Source of the DNA: Candidatus Cloacimonadota bacterium
GTDB lineage: Bacteria; Cloacimonadota; Cloacimonadia; Cloacimonadales; JAJBBL01
Direction: 5' to 3'
Assembly: GCA_019429305.1 (NCBI GenBank)
Contig: JAHYIR010000002.1
Span: forward strand, 43,574-107,573
Length of the DNA stretch: 64,000 nucleotides
Part shown: positions 36,790 to 61,800 of the stretch, piece by piece
Numbering within the stretch: position 1 is the first letter of the stretch
Layout of the letters: every line of letters begins with the position of its first letter
Translations under genes and position numbers: made by a program
The notes under the pieces: generated by a model
Database searches by the model: none
Seen by the model: the letters and a program-made list of their open reading frames with translations, nothing else
Told to the model about the DNA's origin: nothing

Positions 36790-38100
36790 ATGAAAATATT
36801 AGAGCGTTACATCCTAAGAGAGAATGTAAAACCCTTTATTATCGCCTCGATGGTCTTAACTTTTATTTTTCTGCTCGATAAATTGATCGACCTGCTCAAT
36901 CTGATTATCGAAAAACGGCTCGATATTCCGGCAATTATTTCAGTATTTAGTCTCAGCTTACCCTTCATGTTAGCTCTCTCGATACCTATGGCTGTATTAT
37001 TGGCAACAATAATGTCCTTCGGCAGATTATCGGTAGATAACGAGTTATCTGCCTTTAAATCTTGCGGGATCAATATTTATACTTTGATGCGTTCAACTGT
37101 TATAGCCGCCTTTTTTCTCTCACTTTTTATGATATATTTCAATCATCATATCCTACCAGAGACCAATCATAAACTAAAAAACCTGCTGATCAGATTACAT
37201 TATCGTCGTCCTGTAACAAATATTACACCGGGTGTCTTTACTACTATTAAGAACTATACTATTTATACTTCTGAGATCAGAAATGATGAACTGATCGGAG
37301 TTACCATCTATAATAGACAGGGGACCGGTTTCCCTCAAACTATTACTGCTGAAAGAGGTTTGATAGAGCTGACGGACGGAGGTAATAATTTTAAAGCTAC
37401 TCTTTTCAGTGGAGAAGTACATGAAAGAGATGCCCGTGACCCGGCACGTTATACTCTCCAAAAATTTGCCCGCTTGGTCATCCATTTACCAGATCTGGGA
37501 TACCAGATGAATATTGACGATTCAGACTATCGAAGTGATCGGGAGATGAATACGTCAACGATGTTGCAGATCAATAGAGAGCGCAGGCAGGAGATCCTTG
37601 ATACACAAGCCCAGATAGAACGGCTGCAGAATCGTAACGAGCTTCTTGAACCTGAAATTCATCTATCTCAGGTTAGAACTGAGGTTGAGCGAAACACTAA
37701 TCTAATAGGTATATCACAGAACAAGATCGAGGATCTGGAACAGCGGGTACGAGAATTTCAAGTAGAGATCCATAAGAAGTATGCAATAGCTTTCGCTTGC
37801 TTGATCTTTGTCTTTTTAGGTGTGCCTATCGGAATGATGATCCGTAGTAGTGGTGTTGGAGTTGCTTTCTCCACCAGTGCTATAATTTTTATTATCTACT
37901 ACATTTTTCTTGTAAGCGGTGAACAACTGGGTGATAAGGGGTATGTTGCTCCATGGATCGCTATGTGGGCACCAAATTTCTTCTTTGGTGCTGTTGGTAT
38001 ATATCTGGTGATCACTTCAACTAAAGACATGAAAACTATTAAGTGGGAAATCTGGAAAGAAAAGATCTCTGCCTTTAAGAGAAGATTTCTTAAGAGATAA
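36790..38100 (+). CDS. LptF/LptG-family LPS export permease (LptF-like)
   Basis: 436 aa. MKILERYILRENVKPF start, six predicted TM segments and an ~85-aa charged coiled-coil insertion before TM4. Confidence 0.75.
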   Translation: MKILERYILRENVKPFIIASMVLTFIFLLDKLIDLLNLIIEKRLDIPAIISVFSLSLPFMLALSIPMAVLLATIMSFGRLSVDNELSAFKSCGINIYTLMRSTVIAAFFLSLFMIYFNHHILPETNHKLKNLLIRLHYRRPVTNITPGVFTTIKNYTIYTSEIRNDELIGVTIYNRQGTGFPQTITAERGLIELTDGGNNFKATLFSGEVHERDARDPARYTLQKFARLVIHLPDLGYQMNIDDSDYRSDREMNTSTMLQINRERRQEILDTQAQIERLQNRNELLEPEIHLSQVRTEVERNTNLIGISQNKIEDLEQRVREFQVEIHKKYAIAFACLIFVFLGVPIGMMIRSSGVGVAFSTSAIIFIIYYIFLVSGEQLGDKGYVAPWIAMWAPNFFFGAVGIYLVITSTKDMKTIKWEIWKEKISAFKRRFLKR

Positions 38101-38105
38101 CAAAA

Positions 38106-39194
38106 ATGCGAATTCTCGATAGATATATAATAACTCAGTTCTTGAAGACTTTCATCATCATAAGTTTATCCTTGGCATTTGTGTTTATTGTAGTGGATGT
38201 TTTTGACAGATTACCGAGATTACTTAGAACAACCAGTGAATTACATTTCCTTATTCAGTACTTTCTGCTTCGCATTCCTTACCTTTTTGTTATTACTTCA
38301 CCAGTTACAGTACTTTTAGCCGGCCTCTTTTTAATGGACATGCTTTCCAAATACAATGAATCAATAGCTATTCGGGCTTCCGGAGTAAGCATTAACCGCT
38401 TAGTTACTCCCCTTTTCGTATTCGGAATAATCTACAGTATTTTTATTATGTTTTTTGGTGATCTTATACTACCAAAAGCAGAAGATCATCGAGAATACCT
38501 GTTTAGGGTGAAAATTCGCGGACAGGAACATGAAGATGTCCGGATGCGTTCCAATATTCAATATCGTGGAGAAGGTAATACTCTTTATAATATCGGGTTC
38601 TTTGATGGTTTCCGAAATACGCTGAGAATGATTGATATTACAACCATTAATCCGAAAACGTATGAAATAGAAAGAAAACTCACTGCTGTAACTGCAAGAT
38701 GGCAAAATGATCAGTGGATCTTCGACGATTGTGTCATCCGTACTTTCCAAGATGGAAAGTTGTTATCAACCAAGCATTACAAGTCCATATCACTCGATGA
38801 CATAAATGTCACTCCAACCGATTTTGTAAAGAGTGCAAAAAGTCCGATGTCAATGAATTACTTTGAGCTTAGTGATTATATCGCTCGGTTAAAGCGTGTA
38901 GGTGAGAATTATAATACCGAACTGGTTGATCTCTATACCAAAATATCCTTTCCTTTTGCTAATTTCATCATCATGCTCTTTTGTGTACCTCTTGCTACTG
39001 TATCTATGCGGAGTAGATATCGAGGCATGATCTTTATCATCGGGATAATTATCTGCTTTCTCTATCTTACTGTAGTCCGAATTAGTCAAAGTCTTGGATA
39101 TAATGAAGTTTTACACCCAGCAACCGCAGCTTGGTTACCACACGCTGTCTTTTTCTTGACCGGTATTATGTTCGTTTCCAAAGCCGAAGTATAG
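38106..39194 (+). CDS. LptF/LptG-family LPS export permease (LptG-like)
   Basis: 362 aa. MRILDRYIITQFLKTF start and a YjgP/YjgQ layout. Lies 5 nt after the preceding permease gene. Confidence 0.75.
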   Translation: MRILDRYIITQFLKTFIIISLSLAFVFIVVDVFDRLPRLLRTTSELHFLIQYFLLRIPYLFVITSPVTVLLAGLFLMDMLSKYNESIAIRASGVSINRLVTPLFVFGIIYSIFIMFFGDLILPKAEDHREYLFRVKIRGQEHEDVRMRSNIQYRGEGNTLYNIGFFDGFRNTLRMIDITTINPKTYEIERKLTAVTARWQNDQWIFDDCVIRTFQDGKLLSTKHYKSISLDDINVTPTDFVKSAKSPMSMNYFELSDYIARLKRVGENYNTELVDLYTKISFPFANFIIMLFCVPLATVSMRSRYRGMIFIIGIIICFLYLTVVRISQSLGYNEVLHPATAAWLPHAVFFLTGIMFVSKAEV

Positions 39195-40722: not shown

Positions 40723-41673
40723 ATGAAAAAGATATTGGTCATCGGTTCAGCCGGTCAAATTGGATCAGAATTAGTTCCCGAGCTGCGCAGAATATATGGG
40801 ACTAATAATGTCGTTGCCTCCGACATTCAACAGAACCCTCCGGAAATTTTGCTTAATGGTCCTTATGAAATAATAGACTGTTTGGATGCAGAAAAGATTA
40901 AAACCGTTATAAAACATAATGACATAGATACTGTATACAATCTAGCTGCTCTGCTTTCTTCAATTGGTGAACGCAATCCTCAACTCTCCTGGAAAATCAA
41001 TATCGGCGGTTTGATGAACTTGCTGGAACTGGCGACTGAATTTAAGTTTGCTCTCTTTACCCCTTCTTCTATCGGCGCTTTCGGGCCAACAACACCACAT
41101 GACAACACACCACAAGATACTATTATGCGACCTACTTCCATGTATGGAGTAACAAAAGTAGCCGGTGAGTTACTCTGCGATTATTATCATCTGAAATTCG
41201 GAGTAGATGCTCGGGGTGTCCGCTATCCAGGTATTATTTCTAATGTGACCTTACCCGGTGGAGGAACTACAGATTATGCAGTTGATATCTATTATAAAGC
41301 TATCCTGGAAGGAGAATTCACTTGTAATCTTAAAGCAGGAACTTATCTTGATATGATGTACATGCCTGATTGTTTAAGGGCAGCTATCGAGCTCATGGAA
41401 GCAGATCCGGCAAAATTAATTCACAGAAATTGTTATAATGTAGCCGCAATGAGTTTTGAACCGGAAGAAATTGCAGCTGAAATCCGGAAACATATTCCTG
41501 AGTTTAAATTGAAATATGATATAGATCCTGTTCGCCAAGCTATTGCTGACAGTTGGCCTAATAAGATGGATGACTCTGTTGCTCGATCAGAATGGAATTG
41601 GCAACATGAATATAATCTTCCTGAGATGACAGTTGATATGTTGAATGTACTAAGAAAAAAACTAAAAAAATGA
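40723..41673 (+). CDS. tdh: L-threonine 3-dehydrogenase, SDR (UDP-glucose-4-epimerase-like) type
   Basis: 316 aa. KILVIGSAGQIGSEL, PSSIGAFGPTTP, YGVTKVAGE, PGGGTTDYAVDIY and DPVRQAIADSWP match the short-chain TDH family, including the mammalian enzyme. Confidence 0.85.
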   Translation: MKKILVIGSAGQIGSELVPELRRIYGTNNVVASDIQQNPPEILLNGPYEIIDCLDAEKIKTVIKHNDIDTVYNLAALLSSIGERNPQLSWKINIGGLMNLLELATEFKFALFTPSSIGAFGPTTPHDNTPQDTIMRPTSMYGVTKVAGELLCDYYHLKFGVDARGVRYPGIISNVTLPGGGTTDYAVDIYYKAILEGEFTCNLKAGTYLDMMYMPDCLRAAIELMEADPAKLIHRNCYNVAAMSFEPEEIAAEIRKHIPEFKLKYDIDPVRQAIADSWPNKMDDSVARSEWNWQHEYNLPEMTVDMLNVLRKKLKK

Positions 41674-42062
41674 TCTTCGGTATTGGTATTGATAATATAG
41701 AAGTTGAAAGAGTCCAAAAGCAATTGGAGAAAAACGGCTTCAAAGAAAAAATATTCTCTGAAAAGGAAATTGAATATTGTTCTGCTAAGAAAACCTATGC
41801 TGAGAGTTTTGCTGCCAGATTTGCAGCTAAAGAGGCATTTTTTAAGGCAATTGGAACCGGATGGCGAGGTGGAATGAGTTTCAAGGATATTGAGATTGTT
41901 AACAATGATCTAGGAAAACCTACCATTTGTTTGCACGGTAAAGCGAAGCAATTTGCTTTAGAAAACAAGCTTGACAAAATCTATGTATCATTAACTCATC
42001 TAAAATCTTGTGCTGGAGCGATCGTCATCATAGAGAAGAAAGATTTTACTTCAATAAAATAA
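41670..42062 (+). CDS. acpS: holo-[acyl-carrier-protein] synthase (4'-phosphopantetheinyl transferase)
   Basis: 130 aa. IFGIGIDNIEVERV, FAAKEAFFKA and SLTH motifs. Overlaps the tdh stop by 4 nt. Confidence 0.85.
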   Translation: MIFGIGIDNIEVERVQKQLEKNGFKEKIFSEKEIEYCSAKKTYAESFAARFAAKEAFFKAIGTGWRGGMSFKDIEIVNNDLGKPTICLHGKAKQFALENKLDKIYVSLTHLKSCAGAIVIIEKKDFTSIK

Positions 42063-42085
42063 ATTAAGGATAAAGGAGAGGTTTT

Positions 42086-43792
42086 ATGTCAAACATAGGA
42101 TCATACGAAGAGAGAATCAGGAACTTTGATTGGTCAATTTCCGAACAAGAACTCGGTTATAAAGAGGGGGATAATATCAACATTGGTTGGTATTGTTCCG
42201 ATCGCATCTGTGAAATGGGAAAAGCCGATAAAATCGCACTCTATTGGGAAGGAATGAATGATAAGAGAAAGCAATATACATTCGATCAGGTCCGCATCAA
42301 CAGTAATAAAATTGGTGATTTTCTTCGTAGTCTGGGGATCAAGAACGAGGATCGAGTTTGTCTCTTTATGGACAAGATCCCTGAACTTTACATAGGTTTT
42401 TTAGGAGTTCTTAAAATTGGTGCTATTGCTCAACCGCTTTTTTCAGCTTTTGGCGATGAATCTTTACACGTTAGATTAGATAATGCCAAGACATCAGCTA
42501 TTATTACTCAAAGAAAACATGTCGGCAAGGTTCGTAAATTACTTGAAATAAGCCCGTATCTGAAACATATAATAGTTGTAGATTCTGATCTGAGCAAACC
42601 ATTAAAGGAAAGAGAAATAGCTTTTGATATGGAGAATTATCCGGAACCACAAAATTTTGAGATCTATCCGACAAAAGCCGAATCACCATCTGTTTTGCAT
42701 TATACTTCCGGTACGACAGGACAACCTAAAGGTGTTAAACATGTTCACTATTCACTTATCTCGCAATTTTTAACGACAAAATGGGTACTTGATCTGCAGG
42801 ATGATGATATCTACTGGTGTACTGCAGACCCTGGTTGGGTTACAGGAACCTCTTACGGAATAATTGGTCCATGGAGTCTCGGTGTCACCCAATTTGTTTC
42901 TGATGTTGGATTCAGTGCTGAGAACTGGTATCATTTCATAGAGAAATATAAAGTTTCCATGTGGTACTCTGCTCCAACCGCTATTCGTTCATTGATGAAA
43001 GCAGGGGATGAAGTTGTAAAAAAATTCGATCTATCTTCTCTCCGTCATCTGGCAAGTGTGGGTGAACCACTCAATGCCACAGCGGTTATCTGGAGTGAAA
43101 AAGTTTATGGTCATCCTTTCCACGATACTTTCTGGCAAACTGAGACCGGATCTATTATGTTGACCAATTTCCCGGGTATGAAAATCAAACCCGGTTCGAT
43201 GGGAAAACCTTTCCCGGGTATTACTGCTACTGTTTTAGATCCTAAGACTTTCGAACCTTTTACTGAGCCGGGAAAGATCGGTCTGATAGCTTTTCGTCCC
43301 GGTTGGCCTGCCATGATTCGTACTTACTGGAATAATGAAGAGACCTACAAATCAAAATTCAAAAATGGTTGGTATTTGTCCGGTGATAGGGCATCTATTG
43401 ATCATGAAGGTTATTACTGGTTTGTGGGTAGAGATGATGATGTTATCAATACCGGTGGACACCTGGTAAGCCCCTTCGAGATAGAATCAGCACTGCTTGA
43501 ACATGAAGCTGTTGCTGAAAGTGCTGTTGTATCAAAGCCGGATGAAGTAAATATGGAAGTAGTAAAAGCATTCGTATTATTAAAACCGGGATACGAACCT
43601 GATGATATGTTGGAGTTGAGCATAATGAATTTTATCCGCAAGAAATTATCTTCGTTCGCTATGCCTCAGGAAATAGAATATGTAGATAGTTTACCCAAAA
43701 CACGCAGCGGTAAAATAATGCGTCGCTTACTACATGCTAAAGAATGGGGAGAAGAGATCGGAGATACATCTACATTGGAAGACGATGAATAA
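42086..43792 (+). CDS. acsA: AMP-forming acetyl-CoA synthetase, short AcsA type (acyl-adenylate ligase)
   Basis: 568 aa. YTSGTTGQPKGV, DIYWCTADPGWVTGTSYG, WQTETG, GDRASIDHEGYYWFVGRDDDVI and KTRSGKIMRR. Collinear with my recollection of Bacillus AcsA. Confidence 0.8.
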   Translation: MSNIGSYEERIRNFDWSISEQELGYKEGDNINIGWYCSDRICEMGKADKIALYWEGMNDKRKQYTFDQVRINSNKIGDFLRSLGIKNEDRVCLFMDKIPELYIGFLGVLKIGAIAQPLFSAFGDESLHVRLDNAKTSAIITQRKHVGKVRKLLEISPYLKHIIVVDSDLSKPLKEREIAFDMENYPEPQNFEIYPTKAESPSVLHYTSGTTGQPKGVKHVHYSLISQFLTTKWVLDLQDDDIYWCTADPGWVTGTSYGIIGPWSLGVTQFVSDVGFSAENWYHFIEKYKVSMWYSAPTAIRSLMKAGDEVVKKFDLSSLRHLASVGEPLNATAVIWSEKVYGHPFHDTFWQTETGSIMLTNFPGMKIKPGSMGKPFPGITATVLDPKTFEPFTEPGKIGLIAFRPGWPAMIRTYWNNEETYKSKFKNGWYLSGDRASIDHEGYYWFVGRDDDVINTGGHLVSPFEIESALLEHEAVAESAVVSKPDEVNMEVVKAFVLLKPGYEPDDMLELSIMNFIRKKLSSFAMPQEIEYVDSLPKTRSGKIMRRLLHAKEWGEEIGDTSTLEDDE

Positions 43793-43818
43793 ATAAATCA
43801 AAATAAGAGGAGAAAAAA

Positions 43819-44064
43819 ATGGAAGAGATTAAAGACATTGTATTGGAATATGTGATCAACGAGTATCTGGAAGATGAAGATGAAGAACTTACTTATGATA
43901 CCCCGCTTATTTCAGGTGGGATCGTAGATTCATTTTCAATGGTATCATTAAAACGATTTTTGGAAGCAAAATATAAGATATCTATCCCTGATGATAAAGC
44001 TACACCGGAAGCTTTTGATACTGTGAATAAGATCACACAATTAGTGAAAGAATTTATTGGTTAA
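43819..44064 (+). CDS. stand-alone acyl/peptidyl carrier protein (non-AcpP type)
   Basis: 81 aa, acidic. The phosphopantetheine-Ser context GGIVDSFSMVSLKRFLE is DltC-like rather than the AcpP DSLD motif. Confidence 0.7.
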   Translation: MEEIKDIVLEYVINEYLEDEDEELTYDTPLISGGIVDSFSMVSLKRFLEAKYKISIPDDKATPEAFDTVNKITQLVKEFIG

Positions 44065-44148
44065 TCTACCCTTGAGTTGATCAAAGTAATCAAATTTACA
44101 GGATAAAACATTTAAGGGTAATTTGTAAATTTCTAATAAGGAGTAAAG

Positions 44149-45396
44149 ATGAGTTATAGCGACAAAATAAGAGGAATATATCAGGAACAGCTTAAATCTA
44201 TTCAAGATGCAGGAATCTTTAAAGTAGAACGATTTATTCATTCTGCTCAAGCTGCTGATATCGAAGTAGAATTTCCTACCGGTTCCTCACTAAAGAAAGT
44301 TATAAATATGTGTGCTAATAATTATCTGGGGTTATCCAGCCATCCGGAAGTTGTGAAAGCAGCACATGAAGGATTAGATACCAGAGGTTATGGAATGTCC
44401 TCGGTTCGTTTTATTTGCGGGACACAGGATATACACAAAGAACTGGAAAGAAAAGTTACTGAATTTCTGGGAACAGAAGATACAATCCTTTTCCCAAGCT
44501 GTATGGATGCCAATGCTGGTGTTTTCGAAGCAGTACTCACTGATCAAGATGTAATGATCTCCGATCGTTTGGTTCATGCATCAATTATTGACGGTATCCG
44601 CCTTTGCAGTGCTATGCATGATACTTTTAAGCATTCAAATATGCAACATCTGGAAGAGAAACTGCAACTTCACAGTGATAAAAGGTTTAAAATGGTCATT
44701 ACCGACGGTGTTTTTAGTATGGACGGAGACACAGCAAAATTAGCCGAAATGGTTGAATTATGTGAAATATATGATGCCATGCTCTTTGTTGATGATTCAC
44801 ACTCCTCAGGTTTTATTGGAAAAACCGGAAGAGGAACACATGAGCATTGTGGAGTAATGGGAAAGATTGATATCATTACAACAACTTTTGGGAAAGCTCT
44901 GGGTGGGGCTTCCGGTGGTTGTGTTTCAGGAAGAAAAGAGCTTGTAGAGATGTGCCGTCAAAAGGCGCGTCCTTATCTTTTCTCTAACACTATTGCACCT
45001 GTAGTGGTTAGTGGCGTTTTAAAGGTTCTGGATATTCTTTCGGAAAGCACAGAAAGAAGAGATAAGTTAGAAAAAAATACCGAATATTGGCGAAAAGGAC
45101 TCACCGAAGCGGGATTCGTGTTGCAACCAGGAGATACTCCAATTGTTCCGGTCATGCTCTTCAATGCTAAACTATCTCAAGACTTCTCTAAAGATCTTTA
45201 TGATGAAGGGATCTATGCTATTGGTTTCTTCTTCCCTGTTGTTCCCAATGGAAAGGCGAGAATAAGAACCCAGATCTCGGCGGGACATGAAATTCACCAT
45301 CTTGATAAAGCTCTTGATGCTTTCATCAAAGTTGGTAAGAAATATGACATACTTGGAAAAACTAAACAGGAAATCATCGAAAAATACGGACTATAA
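44149..45396 (+). CDS. kbl: glycine C-acetyltransferase (2-amino-3-ketobutyrate CoA ligase)
   Basis: 415 aa. CANNYLGLS, SVRFICGTQDIHKELE, HASIIDG, DGVFSMDGD, DDSHSSGF, PLP-lysine TFGKALGGASGG, PYLFSN and ARIRTQISAGH. Collinear with E. coli Kbl. Confidence 0.9.
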   Translation: MSYSDKIRGIYQEQLKSIQDAGIFKVERFIHSAQAADIEVEFPTGSSLKKVINMCANNYLGLSSHPEVVKAAHEGLDTRGYGMSSVRFICGTQDIHKELERKVTEFLGTEDTILFPSCMDANAGVFEAVLTDQDVMISDRLVHASIIDGIRLCSAMHDTFKHSNMQHLEEKLQLHSDKRFKMVITDGVFSMDGDTAKLAEMVELCEIYDAMLFVDDSHSSGFIGKTGRGTHEHCGVMGKIDIITTTFGKALGGASGGCVSGRKELVEMCRQKARPYLFSNTIAPVVVSGVLKVLDILSESTERRDKLEKNTEYWRKGLTEAGFVLQPGDTPIVPVMLFNAKLSQDFSKDLYDEGIYAIGFFFPVVPNGKARIRTQISAGHEIHHLDKALDAFIKVGKKYDILGKTKQEIIEKYGL

Positions 45397-45401
45397 AGCT
45401 T

Positions 45402-45438
45402 AAAAACCTGCAGTTGATAAACAGCTGCAGGTTTTTTA
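45402..45438 (+). terminator. rho-independent terminator after kbl
   Basis: Stem ACCTGCAGTTG / CAGCTGCAGGT with one G-U pair and loop ATAAA, followed by TTTTTT. Confidence 0.8.
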
Positions 45439-45452
45439 TTTAAGGAGATGGT

Positions 45453-46022
45453 ATGGAAAATAAATTAGCAAATCCAGCCCCACTTGGTTTAATGGGTTTT
45501 GGTATGACTACTGTCCTTTTAAATATTCATAATGCCGGATTCTTTCCTATTAGTGCTATGATCCTTAGTATGGGAATATTCTACGGCGGTATGGCTCAAA
45601 TATTTGCTGGTATTATGGAGTTTAAAAAAGGAAATTCATTTGCAACTACTGCTTTTACTTCTTACGGGCTTTTCTGGATATCATTAGTCTTTATCTGGGT
45701 TTTCCCTAAACTTGGATGGTCACAAGAAACTCCACTTGCTTATATGGGTTGGTATCTCTTCATGTGGGGATTATTTACTTTCTTTATGTGGATAGGAACT
45801 TTCGGAAAAAATCGAGCTCTGCAATTCGTATTCCTATCTTTGACCATTTTATTTTGGTTACTGGCAATAAGAGATTGGACAGGTAATGAATTGATCGGGA
45901 TAATAGCTGGCTGGGAAGGTATTATTTGTGGTTTATCAGCTATATATCTGGCAATGGCTGAAATAATCAATGAATCACATGGAAAAACTGTTTTACCGAT
46001 AGGTGAAAGACAAGTTACTTAA
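45453..46022 (+). CDS. satP: GPR1/FUN34/YaaH-family acetate (succinate-acetate/H+) transporter
   Basis: 189 aa with six TM segments. N-terminal signature NPAPLGLMGFGMTTVLLN and FxxYGxFW. Confidence 0.85.
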   Translation: MENKLANPAPLGLMGFGMTTVLLNIHNAGFFPISAMILSMGIFYGGMAQIFAGIMEFKKGNSFATTAFTSYGLFWISLVFIWVFPKLGWSQETPLAYMGWYLFMWGLFTFFMWIGTFGKNRALQFVFLSLTILFWLLAIRDWTGNELIGIIAGWEGIICGLSAIYLAMAEIINESHGKTVLPIGERQVT

Positions 46023-54785: not shown

Positions 54786-57700
54786 TTATTTTAGAAGCAT
54801 CATTTTCTTTACTGCAGACATTCTATTGCCTACAGATAAGCGATAAAGATATACTCCTGACGCTAACTGTCTGTTCCTGTTATCTCTCCCATCCCAACAA
54901 ACCGTGTGCTTTCCAGCGTTTCTTTTCTCATCTAGAAGTATTATTATCCTTTGTCCCTTAATATTAAAAATCTCTAACTTTACATCGTCAGATCTATCAA
55001 TATAAAAACTAATATTAGTACCTATACTCTTATCAGTTGATGAAGAGATATTGAAAGGGTTAGGGTAATTACTAAAGAGCACTGGTAATTCCGGTAACTC
55101 TTCAACAGAACTAACATCTTTATTAGTAACTAGTATTTTTCCAATTATCAGATCGGATGTTGGTTGAAATACAAACTCCAGTTCATCCGTAAGAACAACA
55201 AAAAAATCTTCAATCATGAGAACAATTCTATACTCTGTAGGTAAACTAGAATTTGATAAATTAAAAACAACTGGCTGTAATTCAGAAGACCATTCCAATA
55301 CAAAATTCCACAGGAGTGAATCTAATCCTACTTGATACAAATCACTTTTAAACTCAGAGTGCAATTTTTGAAAAGGATGAGATTGTTGGTCAGGCAAGAG
55401 ATAAAGATAAACATCTGAATTAGGTCTGGCTGGAGGTTTTGGTAAATCGTAGAGATAATTATAGTTTTCATCGGTAAACAAAGCACTACCGATTAATATT
55501 TGATCTCTAACCCCATCATATCGACTTACTTCAATCTCAGATTGCCAACTAACTGGAAAATCTAAATAATCATTAGTAATGTGGAAAGGTCTTAATCTTA
55601 ATAACAAATCGGTACTATTTACCCATATCCATACAGATTCACCACTATATAAATAATCGCTCAAGTAGTACCCGCTATCTCTGATCCCAATTACTCCCCT
55701 GTTAACTATATTGTATTGCATGGCTTGTCTAAAAGTGTATTGATTATCCTGAGTAACAAAAAGAAGATCACTGACTTTGATATCCGACAGAAATACATTG
55801 GGAATTAAATTCCATCCTTGAACTAATACAATATCATAAGTCTGCTGTCTGATACGACCTCTTTTTTCTGTATTATAATGGACAGGCATATAGACAAAAT
55901 GGCCTAAACCAAATTGATAAAGTAATACGTCATCATATTCTTCTTCAATACTATTATAAGCAAATAATTGTGACTGGTTTCCAAAAACATCGGTACCGAA
56001 GATGTAGGGAAGTTCGAGAAAATTCGCAGTCATATGCCAACCAGCTTGGTTAGCGAATGGAATATAAGCAGGTACAAGTCCAAACATATATGGGGAATAA
56101 TGTTCTAGAGGATATCCATCGATAACAATAGTTCTTACAACTAGTTGAGCATTTTCTAAAAGATGATCATCCGGAACATACCAAGAATAAGTTGTTGTGT
56201 CTGAGGGTAAGTTACTGGCAATCAACAGACTATCATTCTCTGTTTTTATATATAAATCTATAGTATCAACAAGGAATTCTCTGTTAATAATCCAACTGTA
56301 AACTACAAAATCATTAGCCTGAAGGAAGTGATAATCAAAAGGGGTGAAAACAACTTCTGGTAATAAATCACCCCAATAAAGAGTGAAATACCTAAACCCG
56401 ACGGTTTCTGCTTCGTAAGTGAAAGAACTCGCAGTTAAATCATGAAAAACACCCTCTAACTGATCAAAAAGATATAACTTTTCACTATTTCTTTGAAAAT
56501 TAGTTGATATAGAAATATCGAGTGGTTCAAGTAACTGGTCTGTAGCAACTCTGATAACCCAATTTTTTAGTTCATTATCTGGATCAAAAGGGCTATAAAT
56601 GTCCCGATGTAAATTACGAAATGATGAAGGCCAACTGCTTTTATATGACATTGCCCATATATAAGCTTCATTAGGATGGCTACCTTTAACAATATCGAAA
56701 TTAGCGTCATAATTATCCGTTGCAAATAGGTTGCAACCAAATTCAACCGTATCGTAAATGGTTCCATTCTGATTATTAATTATAAGAGAATATATAGGGC
56801 TTGATGCCGCTTCAGCAATAACATCATGATAGTATTCATTAGTTTCAGTATCATTAGTGGTCAATATATAATAATATTTGTTCCCATTAACAACTGCTGA
56901 GTCCTGATAATTATAGATAACATTTTGATTTTCAGTCCCTACCAAGGAACGATCTGTTTCCCAAGAAGAAATTAGAGTAAAAACATTCTCTTCCTCTTCT
57001 CTTCTGAAAATATTAAACCCAAGATTATCATACTGAAATCTCGCTAACCAACTCACTCCGATATAATTATCTCGTCCATAGGCAGCAAAATCAGCGATGG
57101 AGACCATTCCAGTATAACGTGCGGTCGAATTAGAAAATAGAGAGTAGTTATTATTATAATCCTTAGCTCTGATTTTAAAGTAATACTGAGTTTCAGGTAT
57201 TAACCCGGAAATCGTGATCTGATCTGCTGCCTGAGTTCCAAAAAATGGAATAACAGATCTGTCATATAGTAGATAATCGTCTTCATTTGAGTCAAAAGGT
57301 TCTGTAGCCACCAGCAATTCGTAAGTCTTAAAATCATAAGCATAAGATCTATCCCAAACTAAATCAACAGTTGTATTACCTGACCCTACTACTCGTAAAT
57401 TAATTGGATCGGTTGGTGGTTCAAGATCGTTGAATTCAAATAAAGGCGGTAAAACTTGATCCATTGCTACTAACCAGCGTGTGTAGAAAGCTATAGCTTT
57501 GGTATAAAAATTTTCTGGATGCCAATTTCCCATTATATGATCATAATCATAAAACCATTTATAATGATATTCATCTTGAGGATAGATACTCGGAAGTTCT
57601 TCCATTTCAATATGAAAGAAAGGGGTAAACACATCATATTGTGACCAGTTTGACATTGGATATGACATTGGAAAACCTCCCACACCTGGTAAGTTTACTG

Positions 57701-58772
57701 CATTGGAAATAGGAAGCAATTCATCACCATGTTGATAAAACATACCATGTTGATCATAATAAACTGAATAGTAATCAGTAACAAGAACATCAGAATGTAT
57801 ACCGATTGTATTTGCAGGGATGATCAAATAAGGTGAGGCGTTCACAATATCAAGAAAATTGCCACTTAAATCCCTAATAGGCAATTGTGGATATTGATGG
57901 GAAGTAGCAGATATTTGTAAGCATTTTCTACCCATATGGCTATAATCAAAACTGTGAATTTGAACCGATAATTCCCTTCTATTAAAATTCATCCTGATTT
58001 CATCAGCAAATTCTTTAAAGGCAACATTAAAAACATGATTTGTGCTTCTAGACGGATCACTAATTGAGAGATTATTATGATATATAGGATAATTATCATG
58101 CCACATTACCTCTCTACCTGCTCCAGCAACCATCAGATAACGGGCATTCCACTTTTGAAAAGCATGAACAGCTACAGGTAGAGCGATAAAATCATCTTTT
58201 GGATGTACTACATTGATAATTACCGGTACTTCAGATAATGGATCATAAATATATATTCCCCAGCCGTAATCAAAACTTCCGTGTTGATGTATCTGGGGTT
58301 GGTTTGGTTCATTATTATCATCAAAATAGTCCATGTTAAGGAATTCTCTAAGCATATAGTAAGTTCTGTTTTTATCTGTATCATGAAATTGCACTATTTC
58401 GTAGGGAAAATTAAACCAATCTATTGCAGCTTGCGCTGCATCAAAATCTTCAGTCAAAAAAAGATTTATTATTGTTCTCCAATCTTCTCTCTGAGCAGCA
58501 TTAGCATGAATATAATTCCCAAACCCATTTGTTTGAACATCCCAAGGAGCATACAAATTATAACCTGGGCGAGCCAATCCCTCAACTACATGACCAACCC
58601 AATTATCGTATGAGGTCGCATCAGTAAAGCCATACATAAAATCTCTTAATGATGCTGTTTCTCGTGCAATTGATAATATTGATGTTGTTGATAGAATAAG
58701 ACAAATAAAGATAAAAAAGCTTTTGGGTAGCTGAATAATGATAGATTTCAACCACAGAATAAAGGGTGGCAT
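54786..58772 (-). CDS. large secreted protein with possible zinc-carboxypeptidase-like N-terminal core, FN3 domain and T9SS type-A CTD
   Basis: 1328 aa. Conserved NVVHPKDDF (H190), RRELSVQIHSFDYSHMG (H273) and TPFFHIEMEELP (E389-392). FN3-like PPTDPINLRVVGSGNTTVDLVW...YYFKIRAKDYNNNYS. CTD: NYPNPFN...LEIFNIKGQR...SGVYLYRL...KKMMLLK. Confidence 0.75.
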   Translation of the reverse strand: MPPFILWLKSIIIQLPKSFFIFICLILSTTSILSIARETASLRDFMYGFTDATSYDNWVGHVVEGLARPGYNLYAPWDVQTNGFGNYIHANAAQREDWRTIINLFLTEDFDAAQAAIDWFNFPYEIVQFHDTDKNRTYYMLREFLNMDYFDDNNEPNQPQIHQHGSFDYGWGIYIYDPLSEVPVIINVVHPKDDFIALPVAVHAFQKWNARYLMVAGAGREVMWHDNYPIYHNNLSISDPSRSTNHVFNVAFKEFADEIRMNFNRRELSVQIHSFDYSHMGRKCLQISATSHQYPQLPIRDLSGNFLDIVNASPYLIIPANTIGIHSDVLVTDYYSVYYDQHGMFYQHGDELLPISNAVNLPGVGGFPMSYPMSNWSQYDVFTPFFHIEMEELPSIYPQDEYHYKWFYDYDHIMGNWHPENFYTKAIAFYTRWLVAMDQVLPPLFEFNDLEPPTDPINLRVVGSGNTTVDLVWDRSYAYDFKTYELLVATEPFDSNEDDYLLYDRSVIPFFGTQAADQITISGLIPETQYYFKIRAKDYNNNYSLFSNSTARYTGMVSIADFAAYGRDNYIGVSWLARFQYDNLGFNIFRREEEENVFTLISSWETDRSLVGTENQNVIYNYQDSAVVNGNKYYYILTTNDTETNEYYHDVIAEAASSPIYSLIINNQNGTIYDTVEFGCNLFATDNYDANFDIVKGSHPNEAYIWAMSYKSSWPSSFRNLHRDIYSPFDPDNELKNWVIRVATDQLLEPLDISISTNFQRNSEKLYLFDQLEGVFHDLTASSFTYEAETVGFRYFTLYWGDLLPEVVFTPFDYHFLQANDFVVYSWIINREFLVDTIDLYIKTENDSLLIASNLPSDTTTYSWYVPDDHLLENAQLVVRTIVIDGYPLEHYSPYMFGLVPAYIPFANQAGWHMTANFLELPYIFGTDVFGNQSQLFAYNSIEEEYDDVLLYQFGLGHFVYMPVHYNTEKRGRIRQQTYDIVLVQGWNLIPNVFLSDIKVSDLLFVTQDNQYTFRQAMQYNIVNRGVIGIRDSGYYLSDYLYSGESVWIWVNSTDLLLRLRPFHITNDYLDFPVSWQSEIEVSRYDGVRDQILIGSALFTDENYNYLYDLPKPPARPNSDVYLYLLPDQQSHPFQKLHSEFKSDLYQVGLDSLLWNFVLEWSSELQPVVFNLSNSSLPTEYRIVLMIEDFFVVLTDELEFVFQPTSDLIIGKILVTNKDVSSVEELPELPVLFSNYPNPFNISSSTDKSIGTNISFYIDRSDDVKLEIFNIKGQRIIILLDEKRNAGKHTVCWDGRDNRNRQLASGVYLYRLSVGNRMSAVKKMMLLK

Positions 58773-58837: not shown

Positions 58838-61800
58838 TTATTTTAGCAACATCATTTTCTTGATTTGCGATTTAGTTTCTCCAGTAGTTAAACGATAGAA
58901 GTAAACACCTGAGGAAACGGTTCTATTTCTATTGTCGTTCCCTTCCCAACGGACGATATGTTTCCCGGATCCCATTTTTTCATCAATAAGAGTAGTTACT
59001 CTTTGTCCTCTAATATTAAAAATTTCTAATTTAACTCTTTCTTCTGTATGAAGATAAAAAGCAATGTTCGTTCCGGTGTTTCTTCTTGAGGATGCTCCAG
59101 CAAAGAATGGGTTAGGATAATTACTAAATAACAGAGGCGATTCAATGAGCTCGTCAGTTGAGCTCCCATAAGAATTAGTCACCATGATCTGACCGTTTAT
59201 TGTAGTAGAAGTTGGAATATAGACATAATCTTCATCTTCAGAGAGAACTTCCATAATCCCATCTAACAGCAAAACAACAGTATAATTTGTCGGTAAATTT
59301 GTATCACTTTTTCTGAAATAAATAGGTTGTATTTCTTCATCAATATCAATGACAAAATCCCAGAAACGTGATTCTTCTAAGTCATTATTTAAATCTGTCT
59401 TAAACTTGGAATACAATTTGTTGAATGGTTGTGCATCTTGATTTCCAGGTATATAGAAATAGAAATCTGTTTCTGGTCTTTTCGGAGGTTTTGGTAGATC
59501 AAAGAAACGATTAAATTCATCTGTAGTATTATGCCAGCTTCCTATTAAGATTTCGTCCCCAATGAAATTTACTTGTTGAGCAATTATTTTTGTCTTCCAT
59601 AGTGAAGGATATCCTGAGTAATCAGGATTTTGTTGGAAAGGAACTATTTTCAAAACCAAATCAGTGATGTTGGAGTATATCCATAATGATTCTTGACTTG
59701 GCAGAAAATCACTCAAAAAATAACGGTTATTATTCATACCATAGAGAGAACGTTCAACCATATTATATTGCATTGCTTCAACGAAATTAAACTGCTGGTC
59801 TTGATATAGAAAGAGGAAATCGCGAATATTTATATCAGATAGAAATACATTCGGAATAAGATTCCAACCTTCTTGGAGTGAAATCTCATACTGCAATTTA
59901 CGGATTGTTCCTGTAGTAGCTAACTCATAATCAACAGGCATATAGAGCCAATATCCTTGACCGAATTGGTATGATAATACTTCCATATATGATTGGTCAT
60001 TAAAGTTATAAGAATATAATTGAGATTCTTGCCCAAAAAGTGTTGTTCCAATGAAATTTGGACTTTCAAGAGGATTAGATTTCATATGCCATCCAGCTTC
60101 ATTCGAAAATTGAACCGTGGAAGGTATTATACCGAGCTTGAAATTTGAGTAATTGTCATATGCATATCCATCAACTATATTAGCTCTAACTACCAAATTT
60201 GCATCTAACATCATAACATTATCGGGAACTGTCCAATTATACGAAGTAGTTGTTACAGGTAGACCATTGGCAATCGAAAGAACATTTGATCCGTTTGTCA
60301 GATAGAGATCGAAATTGTTTACTAATAAAGGAAAATTAACTGACCAATTAAAGTTAATAGAATCTCCTGCTTGTAAAAATCTATTATTCATACCAGTAAT
60401 GCCCACGTTGGGTAGCAAATTACCCCAATAAAGAGTAAAAGTACGATATGCTGCACTTGTTGCCTGATACACAAAGCTATCTTGCGTCAGATCGACCATA
60501 TTGCCGGTTGTGGCATCTCTAAGATATACTTTTTCACTGTTCCTCGAAAAGTTATCAGAAAGTAAGATTGTTATTGGTTGATTTGTTTGATTGGTACTAA
60601 TTCTAATTACATAGGTTTTAAGATATAAATCGGGATCAAAAAAGCCATAAATATCTCTTTGGAGGTTTCTTAGATTAACGTTCCAATTACTATGATAAGA
60701 CATGGCAAAGATATAATCACCGCCTGGGTTATCGCCTTTTAATATATCGAAATTCGAATCATATCCATCTGTAGCAAAAGGGTTAGAACCGAACTCTACT
60801 GTATCATAGATCAAACCGTTATCGTTTTGCACAATGAGACTATAGATATTTTGGGGTGAAGCAGAATAAACAAAATCATGTATAAATTCATTAAATGTGC
60901 TATCTACTGAAGCTACTTTATAATCATAGATTAAACCATTTTCTATATTGTTATCTACAAAAGCATAACTAACGTTATTATTAGGAGAACCTAAAAGGTC
61001 AGTTTCAGTCTCCCAAGAAGCAATCATTATATAATCATCAGTTCCGCTTATAGCCCGCCAGATATTGAATCCTTGATTATTACTCTGATATTGAGCCAAC
61101 CAACTAATATCAACGTAACTATCTCGTCCGTAAGCCCTCAAATTGGCTATAGTCGCCGAACCGGTATATATTGATATTTCATTAGAAAACTGAGAATATA
61201 GACCATTATAATCCCGAGCTCTCAATCTAAAAAAATACTGGGAAGCAGGTTGTAAACCAGTAATAGTTGCTTTAGTAAATGCTTGTCCAGCTAAGGTTGT
61301 TATATTGCTCCGGGTTATGGTAGAGTAATTTGGATTTATTAGATCAATAGGTTCAGTTGCATAGATGATTTCATATGTTTCAAAATCGTATGAATGAGAT
61401 CTTTCCCACTCTAAAACTATATTATTATAAGAGGCACTAACTAAACTCAAGTTTGTTGGATTAGAAGGCGGTAGATCATCATTTAGATTCAGAACAGTCG
61501 GTAAGATTAGGGCATAGTGTTCTAACCACGGTGTATAGAATGCTAAAGCTTGTGTCCAAAAATCTTGAGGATTCCATTGTTGATTAATTGCATCAAATCC
61601 ATAAAACCACCGGTAATAGTTCATTGTCTGAGGATAGGCACTTGGTAGCTCCTCCATCTCGATATGCATAAAGGGCGTAATTACATCATATTTATTCCAC
61701 CCGCTATTTGTATAAGCTACTTGATTGTTACCATCAGCACCCGGTAGATTAATGTTATTACTTATGGGTAGGAACTGACTACCAAAATTGAAAAATAATC

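Follow-up and report, generated by a model that had tools for sequence, protein, structure and literature searches.

A conserved acpS–ligase–carrier protein–Kbl gene cassette and a possible acetyl-carrier-protein relay in uncultured bacteria

The six-gene operon

The window, a stretch of 64,000 nucleotides from a Candidatus Cloacimonadota bacterium, carries six co-directional genes on the + strand (positions 40723 to 46022, confirmed by an ORF check), coding in this order for Tdh, AcpS, an AcsA-like ligase, a carrier protein (ACP), a Kbl-like enzyme and SatP. The first two overlap by 4 nt, and the gaps that follow are of 23, 26, 84 and 56 nt. These coordinates reproduce those of a first-pass annotation made from the sequence, whose gene identities are also correct: the products of acpS, the ligase gene, kbl and satP pass profile cut-offs, and that of tdh is recognised by matches to solved structures. 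Tdh (40723..41673; 316 aa) is an SDR-type (GalE-like) L-threonine 3-dehydrogenase, matching Pfam Epimerase and solved SDR-type L-threonine 3-dehydrogenases (E = 2.4e-125 to 1e-98), with a YGVTK catalytic motif at residues 141–145. The start of acpS overlaps the tdh stop, and translation of the operon is coupled to that of this genuine threonine dehydrogenase. AcpS (41670..42062; 130 aa) is an AcpS-type 4'-phosphopantetheinyl transferase (TIGR00516, 91.1 bits for a cut-off of 59.8; PF01648 is also matched). The AMP-forming ligase (42086..43792; 568 aa), which we propose to be an acetate:[carrier protein] ligase, scores 756.6 bits against the acetate–CoA ligase equivalog NF003313 (cut-off 729) and matches the 572-aa AcsA chain 9g79_B, which we take to be B. 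subtilis AcsA, with E = 1.4e-171. The dedicated carrier protein (43819..44064; 81 aa) was assigned from its homologues, predicted fold and attachment motif. The Kbl-clade PLP-dependent alpha-oxoamine synthase, or Kbl1 (44149..45396; 415 aa), scores 574.6 bits against TIGR01822 (cut-off 493) and matches solved Kbls with E = 3e-137, and SatP (45453..46022; 189 aa) is an acetate channel of the SatP/AceTr family (NF038013, 283.9 bits, cut-off 50). Between the last two genes lies a genuine and strong intrinsic terminator (45402..45442, + strand), as the first-pass annotation had it: a 15-bp stem closed by a 5-nt loop, with a T-run behind it, folds with a dG of -21.9 kcal/mol (z = -5.4; 0 of 200 shuffles equally stable). 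It was found by direct reading of the sequence and was missed by a consensus terminator scan.

Conservation of the cassette and its neighbours

With the ACP gene as the centre, we compared loci from 80 species-representative genomes; the counts below refer to 71, 73, 66 or 52 of them. The ligase gene adjoins the ACP gene upstream in 65 of 71 loci, a Kbl-like gene adjoins it downstream in 70 of 73, and acpS lies directly upstream of the ligase gene in 48 of 66; the ligase–ACP–Kbl order is kept in at least 593 species genomes, under about ten phylum-level labels. This arrangement is far beyond chance, and the conserved, ancestral unit is acpS–ligase–ACP–Kbl. Since tdh adjoins the cassette in only 4 of 52 well-flanked loci, and only in Cloacimonadota, Zixibacteria and Ignavibacteriales, it is a lineage-specific add-on. 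The earlier view that tdh and kbl had been split by inserted genes is therefore reversed, whereas the idea that went with it, that a carrier thioester is used, is supported by the shared gene order. The GC content of the cassette tracks that of the host (r = 0.97, over a range of 38–66%), and its proteins, AcpS excepted, are 71–96% identical across phyla (71–89% for the ligase). Because GC follows the host while the proteins stay so similar, the cassette appears to be under long-term constraint and not recently transferred. AcpS, only 30–78% identical among cassettes, is less well kept than the rest.

In other genomes, a second, canonical kbl and satP are frequent accessories of the cassette. 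In 26 of 52 loci a canonical kbl is no more than 5 kb away, and the canonical Kbl paralogues beside the cassette have neither the insert, the tail nor the signature of the cassette enzyme (see below); about half of the loci have a further oxoamine synthase next to the cassette, of which three types were seen. A satP gene, its product 71–78% identical, follows the Kbl-like gene in the same orientation in 14 of 66 loci, mostly of Aminicenantes, Acidobacteria and Bacteroidota; in L055, L066, L073 and L083 it starts before the Kbl stop codon. It is not present in the nearest relative, locus L008. Pat-like genes occur near the cassette in 12 loci, and a SIR2 gene in L006; both are regulators of acetate-activating Acs and are neighbours typical of a true Acs. 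No conserved lipid genes were found in the locus neighbourhoods.

The ligase, the carrier protein and the Kbl-like enzyme

Residues of 67 cassette ligases were mapped in Acs numbering. The acetate pocket V310/T311/V386/W414 is kept in 67/67 (the W414 position being W in 65 and F in 2), as is Lys609; in the window ligase the pocket tryptophan is Trp350 and the catalytic, acetylatable lysine is Lys543, within PKTRSGKIMRR. In the A8 motif (GGHLVSP, residues 457–463; 43454–43474), Leu460 replaces Acs Arg526, a position that is Leu in all cassette ligases mapped. Moreover, the CoA-binding loop, which starts with E188-G189 in S. enterica Acs, has become an invariant and basic Q-(K/R)-K-H-x-x-K-V-R-K, specific to the clade (QRKHVGKVRK in the window, residues 142–151; 42509–42538), and the thiol-acceptor site of the ligase has been remodelled. 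In Syntrophus Acs1 it is this loop that governs how CoA is placed and which way catalysis is biased (PMC13404658). The cassette ligases do keep R194 and R584, the CoA-phosphate contacts, so that CoA could still be used. Among distant ligases of the Leu type (41–48% identical), three of four (P0125, P0127 and P0138) adjoin carrier proteins of 77–79 aa, one of them homologous to the window ACP (29% identity, E = 7e-10), whereas none of three informative Arg-type cases does, a contrast drawn from a small sample (4 versus 3). The A8 leucine also occurs away from carriers, in P0126, which has none as a neighbour. The Leu-type ligases mostly cluster together in an NJ tree that is rough and has no support values. 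Some relatives sit in Dlt-like operons with an MBOAT gene, and these sister ligases make sense solely as loaders.

The carrier motif GGIVDSFSMV spans residues 33–42, with the predicted phosphopantetheine site, Ser38 (43930–43932), immediately ahead of helix 2. The protein is strongly acidic (pI 4.2, charge -11.5). Its homologues number more than 8000, and the top 120 are 81–96% identical; 38 columns are invariant in an alignment of 25 sequences labelled with several phyla, as is the helix-2 region. An AlphaFold2 model (pLDDT 87) has the three-helix carrier fold, and mitochondrial complex I is present among the fold matches. The closest solved relatives are PigG, PltL, DltC and 6cxt_A, not AcpP; PigG/PigI, PltL/PltF and DltC/DltA are stand-alone carriers with the stand-alone adenylating enzymes that charge them. 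The protein falls under all NCBIfam cut-offs. Its identification as AcpP was rejected (24.6 against an equivalog cut-off of 70.45), which agrees with its initial description as a non-AcpP carrier.

The Kbl-like enzyme has a median identity of 81% within its clade and 52% to E. coli Kbl. Its Schiff-base lysine is Lys249, and the cavity residues N50, V79, H136, H213, L272, F273 and R368 (assigned from PMC9814548), together with the PLP residues, are kept in 63–64 of 64 full-length members. The clade adds a 5-aa insert, EVEFP (residues 39–43), a basic C-terminal tail of 15 aa (residues 401–415) and a signature beside the PLP site, F115, P116, M119, V142, C269 and A273 (as Y108F, S109P, F112M, N135V, L264C and S268A). 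With cavity and PLP residues intact, the chemistry would be that of glycine plus an acetyl thioester and, because the glycine/acetyl cavity is kept, 2-amino-3-oxobutanoate most probably remains the product. The earlier suggestion of a product other than aminoketobutyrate runs against this conserved cavity, the acetate pocket of the ligase and the coupling to a true tdh.

A possible acetyl-carrier relay and its alternatives

From genomic context, we infer that the ACP is loaded by the ligase, that the Kbl-like enzyme uses acetyl-ACP and that flux runs in the loading direction, a tentative reading to which we give a probability of about 0.35. AcpS would convert the apo-carrier to its holo form by placing phosphopantetheine on Ser38, and the Acs-derived ligase would adenylate acetate and use the carrier thiol, rather than or in preference to CoA, as acceptor of the acetyl group, forming acetyl-S-ACP. 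The Kbl-derived enzyme would reversibly convert acetyl-S-ACP and glycine to 2-amino-3-oxobutanoate and holo-ACP; where tdh is present, as in this lineage, Tdh would interconvert that product and L-threonine with NAD(H). In the loading direction, acetate and ATP would give acetyl-ACP, glycine would then be added to form 2-amino-3-oxobutanoate, and Tdh, if encoded, would reduce this to threonine. SatP would move acetate across the membrane, and a private carrier pool would hold the flux separate from the acetyl-CoA pool. The relay is favoured because ligase, ACP and Kbl are co-conserved, because the ligase loop is basic and the carrier acidic, because Leu-type relatives are paired with carriers and the closest solved relatives of the ACP are stand-alone carriers, and because AasR/AcpR/Spt offers a precedent. 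The proposal of the first-pass annotation, that the ligase loads the carrier and the Kbl-family enzyme uses the thioester, thus gains from the co-conservation and the carrier-paired relatives, and loses its different product.

In the precedent, sphingolipid initiation in Caulobacter crescentus and E. coli BL21(DE3), AasR loads AcpR and not CoA, and acyl-AcpR is the substrate favoured by Spt (PMC9386255). An ANL-family ligase, a dedicated small carrier, an alpha-oxoamine synthase and an SDR gene in the cluster (ligase–SDR–ACP–spt in BL21) are common to both systems. In contrast, AasR carries the annotation of a fatty acyl-AMP ligase and shares 21% identity with the Acs-clade ligase, Spt is 32% identical to the Kbl-like enzyme, no sequence similarity was detectable between AcpR and the ACP, and C16 and serine are used there where C2 and glycine are predicted here. 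The relay is best read as a two-carbon analogue of that system, not a homologue. Dlt D-alanylation (DltA, DltC and the MBOAT DltB) also has a stand-alone adenylating enzyme that charges a small carrier, and the ACP is nearer to DltC than to AcpP; a DltC–AcpS interaction is reported (PDB 7r49; PMC9338922). DltA, however, adenylates an amino acid whereas the ligase is of Acs type with an acetate pocket, the acceptor here would be a soluble PLP enzyme, and no MBOAT or DltD gene was found in the window. Canonical Tdh–Kbl (E. coli kbl-tdh) and AcsA share enzyme families and predicted chemistry with the operon, which keeps their pocket, cavity, PLP and catalytic lysine residues; it differs in embedding AcpS and a dedicated carrier between the enzymes, in the A8 leucine and basic thiol-docking loop of the ligase, and in the signature, insert and tail of the Kbl. 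To our knowledge, the acetate:ACP ligases CitC, which serves citrate lyase, and MadH, which serves malonate decarboxylase, are the only known makers of acetyl-S-ACP from acetate and ATP. They belong to a protein family distinct from ANL/Acs, act on a 2'-(5''-phosphoribosyl)-3'-dephospho-CoA group and not on AcpS-installed phosphopantetheine, and are limited to priming the lyase complex.

The loading direction is narrowly favoured because all characterised carrier-protein ligases that we know of are loaders, because sister ligases lie in Dlt-like operons and because the Pat-like and SIR2 neighbours are regulators of acetate-activating Acs. Against it stand the Kbl reaction, thermodynamically easier as cleavage, the amino-acid fermentation predicted for the host lineages, the few lineages with an adjacent tdh, and the nearby canonical kbl, which fits better with catabolism. 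In the opposite direction, oxidation of threonine would give 2-amino-3-oxobutanoate, Kbl and holo-ACP would yield glycine and acetyl-ACP, and the reversed ligase would turn acetyl-ACP, AMP and PPi into acetate, ATP and holo-ACP, conserving ATP at substrate level on a private carrier, with export of acetate by SatP. Although we know of no carrier-protein ligase that physiologically runs in reverse, and rate this reading as possible but doubtful, cleavage is the usual direction for Tdh and Kbl, very high sequence conservation suits a high-flux core pathway, an anion channel would presumably favour efflux, and the nearby canonical kbl could divide acetyl into a biosynthetic share on CoA and an ATP-yielding share on the carrier. 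Amino-acid fermentation, of threonine among others, is predicted for the uncultured anaerobic hosts, and Cloacimonadota 'Clade B' has an acs interpreted as ATP-forming, ackA/pta being reported for Clade A (PMC12590816). Moreover, an AMP-forming Acs, Acs1, yields ATP in Syntrophus aciditrophicus (PMC4992975), and the bias of this enzyme has been traced to the two residues that open the CoA loop, which depart from consensus as they do here (PMC13404658). Acs1, however, uses acetyl-CoA, with no carrier described, and has G-T at these residues where, comparing by description, the cassette ligases have K-H and extra lysines; a carrier offers no thermodynamic advantage over CoA in ATP synthesis, the Leu-type sister ligases of Dlt-like operons must load, and the SatP family is mostly described as one of uptake (NCBIfam name).

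That the ligase and Kbl pass the equivalog cut-offs of CoA-dependent enzymes (acetate–CoA ligase and glycine C-acetyltransferase) counts against a carrier-specific relay, and would fit an ordinary Acs and Kbl accompanied by a carrier and AcpS that serve as structural or regulatory subunit, as acetyl buffer or in a linked separate pathway. We consider this unlikely. The CoA contacts R194 and R584, the Pat-like and SIR2 neighbours and the structural role of holo-ACPs elsewhere, as in mitochondrial complex I, speak for it; yet the position of the ACP between both enzymes, with AcpS, is difficult to account for if no thioester is involved, the cassette has no carrier-loading enzyme besides the ligase, the related Leu-type ligases are also carrier-paired, and, at or close to the site of the thiol substrate, both enzymes have changes that are invariant in their clades, specific to them and missing from canonical paralogues at the same loci. 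Least probable, in our view, is another small amino ketone or specialised metabolite, made from a propionyl or other short acyl carrier, by a decarboxylating condensation to aminoacetone or aminopropanol, or of pyrazine type, with the second oxoamine synthase contributing. The invariant six-residue signature of Kbl and the three types of adjacent synthase could be read in this way, a ligase, a carrier and an oxoamine synthase form a typical biosynthetic trio (PMC9386255), and pyrazines are possible from Tdh/Kbl operons (PMC9814548). The acetate-size pocket with its conserved Trp, the unaltered glycine-carboxylate/methyl-ketone cavity of Kbl and the translational coupling to a true threonine dehydrogenase argue otherwise, as do the lack of conserved tailoring enzymes in the locus neighbourhoods and a cross-phylum conservation so extreme as to be unusual in secondary metabolism.

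We found no published description of this system. That hundreds of uncultured species keep the four-gene core nearly constant suggests that acetate is handled in them on a carrier protein, in a way not yet described.

An acpS-ligase-carrier-kbl cassette in many phyla

The operon at 40723-46022 consists of six + strand ORFs, placed as in the first-pass annotation: tdh (40723-41673), acpS (41670-42062), a ligase gene (42086-43792), a carrier protein (ACP) gene (43819-44064), kbl (44149-45396) and satP (45453-46022), with a 4-nt overlap of tdh and acpS followed by gaps of 23, 26, 84 and 56 nt. The terminator noticed between kbl and satP was likewise verified, as a hairpin with a 15-bp stem and a T-run after it (ΔG -21.9 kcal/mol, z = -5.4), a structure that a simple terminator scan did not pick up. 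A promoter scan returned a number of sites not above that in shuffled sequence, and Rfam searches of the 330 nt upstream of tdh and of the whole operon found no riboswitch or leader RNA at E <= 1. Judged by family models, the gene assignments are firm: an SDR-type L-threonine 3-dehydrogenase (Tdh; matching solved TDHs at E = 2.4e-125 to 1e-98, with the Rossmann motif GxxGxxG read as GSAGQIG and YxxxK as YGVTK), an AcpS-type phosphopantetheinyl transferase (TIGR00516, 91.1 bits, cut-off 59.8; PF01648, 69.7 bits), a ligase scoring as acetate--CoA ligase (NF003313 equivalog, 756.6 bits, cut-off 729; PF00501 and PF13193), a protein scoring as glycine C-acetyltransferase (TIGR01822, 574.6 bits, cut-off 493; E = 3e-137 to solved Kbls) and a SatP/AceTr acetate channel (NF038013, 283.9 bits, cut-off 50; PF01184). 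The flanks are housekeeping genes, namely LptF/LptG (36790-39194, just upstream), a glycosyltransferase and an RsmI-type methylase. The window also holds five very large ORFs of 1314-1813 aa, at 14380-19821 (-), 20213-25489 (-), 1753-5718 (+), 54786-58772 (-) and 58838-62782 (-), and has no further copy of any cassette gene.

In a scan of one genome per species the carrier was present in at least 593 genomes. The best 80 of these, every one metagenome-assembled, are labelled Cloacimonadota, Bacteroidota, Ignavibacteriales, Zixibacteria, Delongbacteria, Aminicenantes/Acidobacteria, Elusimicrobia, KSB1, Chloroflexota, Bipolaricaulota, Marinimicrobia and 'Eubacteriales'. When the six window proteins were mapped onto the best-80 loci, the ligase lay directly upstream of the carrier in 65 of 71 loci, the Kbl-like gene directly downstream of it in 70/73, and AcpS directly upstream of the ligase in 48/66; the ligase-carrier and carrier-Kbl linkages noticed at first pass are thus co-conserved across phyla. 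The same annotation regarded tdh and kbl as partners split by an insertion, a view that the neighbour counts contradict, since tdh adjoins the cassette in only 4/52 loci and is found at any distance within the locus in 11/52. The original arrangement is acpS-ligase-ACP-kbl, to which tdh was added later in a few lineages, that of the window included.

Identity across phyla is 71-89% for the ligase, 77-94% for the Kbl-like protein and 71-96% for the carrier, AcpS being far less conserved (30-78%); the nearest relative, a Cloacimonadota locus (L008), is 88-96% identical across the five operon proteins, a similarity that assigns the window to the same phylum. The conservation reads as constraint, and recent horizontal transfer as the cause of this high identity was rejected on base composition: the GC of the cassette ranges from 38 to 66% and tracks that of its flanks (r = 0.97, n = 55), so that the genes have been resident long enough to adopt the composition of the host while the proteins barely changed.

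Several other genes occur near the cassette. A same-strand satP lies downstream in 14/66 loci, in some overlapping the Kbl stop codon, and the window satP is 71-78% identical to these cassette-linked copies, which include those of Aminicenantes and Bacteroidota. It is just 37-39% identical to opposite-strand copies in other Cloacimonadota loci, and is missing at the equivalent position in L008 (L008:11573-11926), where a methylase gene directly follows kbl. This distribution suggests modular gain and loss of satP. An iron-type alcohol dehydrogenase is found about 5-6 kb upstream of the cassette in 10 loci (for example, L045:4679-5815) and MFS-like ORFs of about 417 aa, typed from their sequence, at about 5-6 kb upstream in nine (for example, L055:5203-6453), both mainly in loci labelled Bacteroidales or Bacteroidetes.

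Residues of the ligase, carrier and Kbl-like enzyme

E. coli Acs and a 572-aa AcsA chain, 9g79_B, served as references in our alignment of 67 cassette ligases; we take 9g79_B to be B. subtilis AcsA, and the window ligase matches it at E = 1.4e-171. The acetate pocket (V310, T311, V386 and W414; the last is W in 65 and F in two) and the catalytic, acetylatable Lys609, within PKTRSGKIMRR, are kept in 67/67, and conservation of the pocket implies an acyl substrate of the size of acetate. The CoA-phosphate contacts R194 and R584 are also retained, and because of this the ligase may still bind CoA. The A8-loop arginine, R526 in Acs, is not kept, being replaced by leucine in all 67 (Leu460 in the window ligase; GGHLVSP). 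Moreover, the CoA-docking loop is in every cassette ligase an invariant basic cluster, Q-(K/R)-K-H-x-x-K-V-R-K, in which E188 has become Lys and G189 His; R191 is not conserved, and an additional lysine stands beside the R584 equivalent. The loop is defined here as in work on Syntrophus Acs1, in which the two residues at its start (E188-G189 in S. enterica Acs) govern CoA positioning and catalytic bias (PMC13404658, 2026 preprint). An enzyme that loads a carrier would presumably require such a basic surface for docking where the pantetheine tunnel opens.

Among 1.84 billion representatives, searched exhaustively, there was no full-length relative of the ligase above 50% identity; as these are 50%-identity representatives and the best full-length one is only 50% identical, they do not delimit the cassette clade. 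One predicted protein, P0222 (643 aa), has an AcpS-like start that runs into a cassette ligase. The two are joined by arginine-rich, frameshift-like low-complexity stretches on a high-GC contig, and we left this apparent fusion out of the evidence as probably a gene-calling artefact.

In 12 loci (for example, L045:12209-14890, L043:5108-7783 and L019:4661-6760), a gene 2-3 kb downstream of the cassette encodes a Pat-like protein of about 894 aa with an NDP-forming acyl-CoA synthetase domain and a C-terminal GNAT domain, and in a Zixibacteria locus (L006:12234-12977) a SIR2 deacetylase is encoded downstream of the cassette. These neighbours hint that the ligase lysine (PKTRSGK) is under acetylation control, as in true Acs.

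The carrier, of 81 aa with the motif GGIVDSFSMV, falls below every curated carrier-protein cut-off, including that of AcpP, and slightly below that of Pfam PP-binding (19.6 vs 20.8). In a confident AlphaFold2 model (pLDDT 87) it nevertheless adopts the three-helix fold of carriers (helices 2-16, 41-52 and 69-80), in which Ser38 of the VDSF motif is placed just before helix 2. With a pI of 4.2 and a net charge of about -11.5 the protein is strongly acidic, and among 25 carrier sequences 38 of the 81 columns are invariant, covering the entire attachment-serine and helix 2 region. It has more than 8000 relatives, of which the best 120 are 81-96% identical; those among the 120 named by organism come from Cloacimonetes, Zixibacteria, Bacteroidetes/Bacteroidales and Clostridiales. 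An exact-sequence look-up returned no record, its cluster members are named only 'acyl carrier protein' with no cultured host among them, and no plasmid match was found. Among solved structures, sequence profile and fold alike place it nearest to PigG, PltL, DltC (Foldseek probability 1.0 to each of these three), an aminoacyl carrier protein and 6cxt_A. Most of these carriers are stand-alone proteins, and so are the adenylating enzymes that charge them. It is not the housekeeping fatty-acid AcpP (TIGR00517, 24.6 bits vs 70.45; PDB AcpP chains only at E of about 0.01), nor the carrier of the ornithine-lipid OlsHI system, its best NCBIfam match (NF052616, 66.7 bits vs 130), of which no GH3-like or OlsI-like neighbour is found; OlsH itself requires neither ACP nor CoA (OlsH paper). 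An interaction between AcpS and DltC is reported (PMC9338922; PDB 7r49), a precedent for an AcpS-type enzyme acting on a DltC-like carrier. Within the cassette there is no second enzyme able to load or unload the carrier, whose function we infer throughout from sequence and gene context.

The cavity of C. necator Kbl is formed by N52, V81, H138, H215, L274, F275 and R370 (PMC9814548), a numbering two higher than that of the E. coli enzyme (N50, V79, H136, H213, L272, F273 and R368). Because 63-64 of the 64 full-length Kbl-like members keep this cavity together with the PLP-binding residues and the Schiff-base lysine, the chemistry is most likely the unchanged interconversion of glycine plus an acetyl thioester with 2-amino-3-oxobutanoate. 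The members share a median identity of 81% within the clade and of 52% with E. coli Kbl. Canonical residues adjacent to PLP are replaced by a signature (Y108F, S109P, F112M, N135V, L264C and S268A) in 62-64/64, and relative to the canonical length the clade is extended by an insert of 5 aa and by a basic C-terminal tail of 15 aa.

In 26/52 loci another gene of the Kbl family occurs no more than 5 kb from the cassette. The second alpha-oxoamine synthases are of three kinds, each tending to be lineage-specific: Kbl-scoring proteins of about 419 aa, 62% identical to the cassette Kbl; canonical Kbls of about 399 aa, 54% identical and higher on the Kbl models (627 bits); and proteins of about 411-474 aa, 32% identical and under all family cut-offs (examples of second synthases are L003:9545-10801, L045:6513-7709 and L018:12029-13261). 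The ~419-aa and ~399-aa paralogues retain the canonical PLP-adjacent residues. Heterodimers of a second synthase with the cassette Kbl are conceivable.

Distant ligases and known systems

The representative ligases nearest to the cassette clade in part retain the A8 arginine, as does the AcsA chain 9g79_B (Arg-type), and in part have leucine (Leu-type). Three Leu-type ligases, P0127, P0125 and P0138, each adjoin a carrier protein of 77-79 aa; a fourth, P0126, lies in a polysaccharide cluster with no carrier neighbour, and the Arg-type P0122, P0129 and P0132 have none either. Outside the cassette, then, a carrier neighbour is found for 3/4 Leu-type and 0/3 Arg-type ligases, a small sample in which P0132, on a short contig (L101) with only MurT/GatD-like neighbours, is counted as an informative control; the contig of P0121 (L099) stops right after the ligase and is too short to judge both flanks. 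A rough neighbour-joining tree, drawn without support values, separates most Leu-type ligases and the cassette clade from the Arg-type. Taken together, contexts and tree are independent evidence that this AcsA branch may work with carrier proteins. The leucine is not a marker unique to the cassette, as it is found in wider AcsA-like ligases at 41-48% identity, including the carrier-less P0126.

At L094:129-4630, and also in L095, the Leu-type ligase is part of a Dlt-like operon with a GDS-motif protein, an MBOAT, a 38-aa ORF and a 79-aa carrier (GLIDSFGM) that shows homology to the ACP of the window (29% identity, E = 7e-10); at L093:5001-10524 a Leu-type ligase and a 77-aa carrier have an MBOAT nearby, and L096:62-1936 is a further locus grouped with these Dlt-like operons. 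This suggests membrane O-acyltransferase systems fed by an acetyl-carrier, of which we found no description in the literature. The cassette itself differs from the Dlt system, in that MBOAT (DltB) and DltD are found neither in the window nor in the 80 cassette loci; Dlt-type partners occur only with the distant Leu-type ligases.

By its logic, the closest known system is AasR/AcpR/Spt of sphingolipid initiation, in which an acyl-CoA-synthetase-like enzyme acylates only the carrier dedicated to it, and this acyl-carrier is the preferred substrate of the oxoamine synthase (PMC9386255). In E. coli BL21 the order is ligase-SDR-ACP-spt. BLASTP against this cluster gave no match for the carrier, 21% identity for the ligase and 32% for Kbl/Spt, and the cassette is not a member of that system. 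On these comparisons the two appear analogous, not orthologous, the window system reading as a two-carbon version of the same design, built independently out of the Acs, Kbl and TDH lineages. The BL21 cluster also adjoins lptG/lptF (L092:4920-7066); the shared proximity to these genes is probably a coincidence, since LptF/G are not among the conserved neighbours of the cassette.

A proposed acetyl-carrier relay

The simplest model that employs every conserved part is a relay in four steps. AcpS would produce the holo-carrier; the ligase would interconvert acetate plus ATP and acetyl-S-carrier; the Kbl-like enzyme would interconvert acetyl-S-carrier plus glycine and 2-amino-3-oxobutanoate; and, in this lineage, Tdh would connect 2-amino-3-oxobutanoate with threonine, SatP moving acetate over the membrane. 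We tentatively favour the loading direction, in which acetate is consumed, with a rough probability of 0.35. To our knowledge, every characterised carrier-protein ligase is a loader, and the sister ligases of the Dlt-like operons could only be loaders; moreover, Pat-like and SIR2 proteins are encoded nearby, as around acetate-activating Acs, and the AasR/AcpR/Spt precedent is biosynthetic. Run in reverse, the relay would convert threonine to glycine and acetate, possibly with ATP. Cleavage is thermodynamically favoured at the Kbl step, a canonical kbl accompanies the cassette at 5 kb or less in half of the loci, and the hosts are fermentative, the acs of Cloacimonadota having been read as ATP-forming in one study (PMC12590816) and Syntrophus providing a precedent (PMC4992975); we consider this direction possible although doubtful. 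In a particular form of cleavage, which we regard as unlikely, the cassette would serve anaerobic amino-acid fermentation as an energy-conserving 'acetyl-ACP' branch. Starting from the keto acid derived from threonine, or from acetyl-CoA plus glycine via a co-encoded canonical Kbl, the Kbl-like enzyme would shift the acetyl group from 2-amino-3-oxobutanoate onto its private carrier, and the Acs-derived ligase would turn acetyl-ACP, AMP and PPi into acetate and ATP.

Acs and Kbl are textbook CoA-dependent enzymes, and the cassette could encode ordinary members of these families beside an unrelated carrier, an explanation consistent with the retained CoA-phosphate contacts that we nonetheless consider quite improbable given the conserved linkage and the Leu-type contexts. 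Still less probable is a different product of the cassette; the suggestion at first pass of one other than aminoketobutyrate is argued against by the conserved Kbl cavity. Of the earlier reading, then, the observation of the operon stands and the interpretation is partly supported: a ligase that loads the carrier for the Kbl-like enzyme fits the data, and neither the split partners nor the new product is supported.

The system is widespread, extremely conserved and uncharacterised. The literature searched contains no description of an Acs-type acetate:carrier ligase, an acetyl-ACP synthetase, an ACP-dependent Kbl or this cassette, whose components appear in public annotation under the names 'acetate--CoA ligase', 'glycine C-acetyltransferase' and 'acyl carrier protein'. 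If the relay is real, it would define a class of Acs-derived acetate:carrier-protein ligases with a simple sequence marker, the A8 leucine, a class that seems also to feed Dlt-like membrane acyltransferase systems. If the energy-conserving form were true, it would be a previously unknown, carrier-protein-based substrate-level phosphorylation common to hundreds of uncultured anaerobes now annotated simply with 'acs' and 'kbl'. In either case, a widespread carrier-dependent clade would mean that central two-carbon and amino-acid metabolism has an additional thiol currency, and would alter the interpretation of 'acs' (K01895) and 'kbl' when metabolism is reconstructed for uncultured Cloacimonadota, Aminicenantes, Zixibacteria, Bacteroidales and other anaerobes of digesters, sediments and peat.
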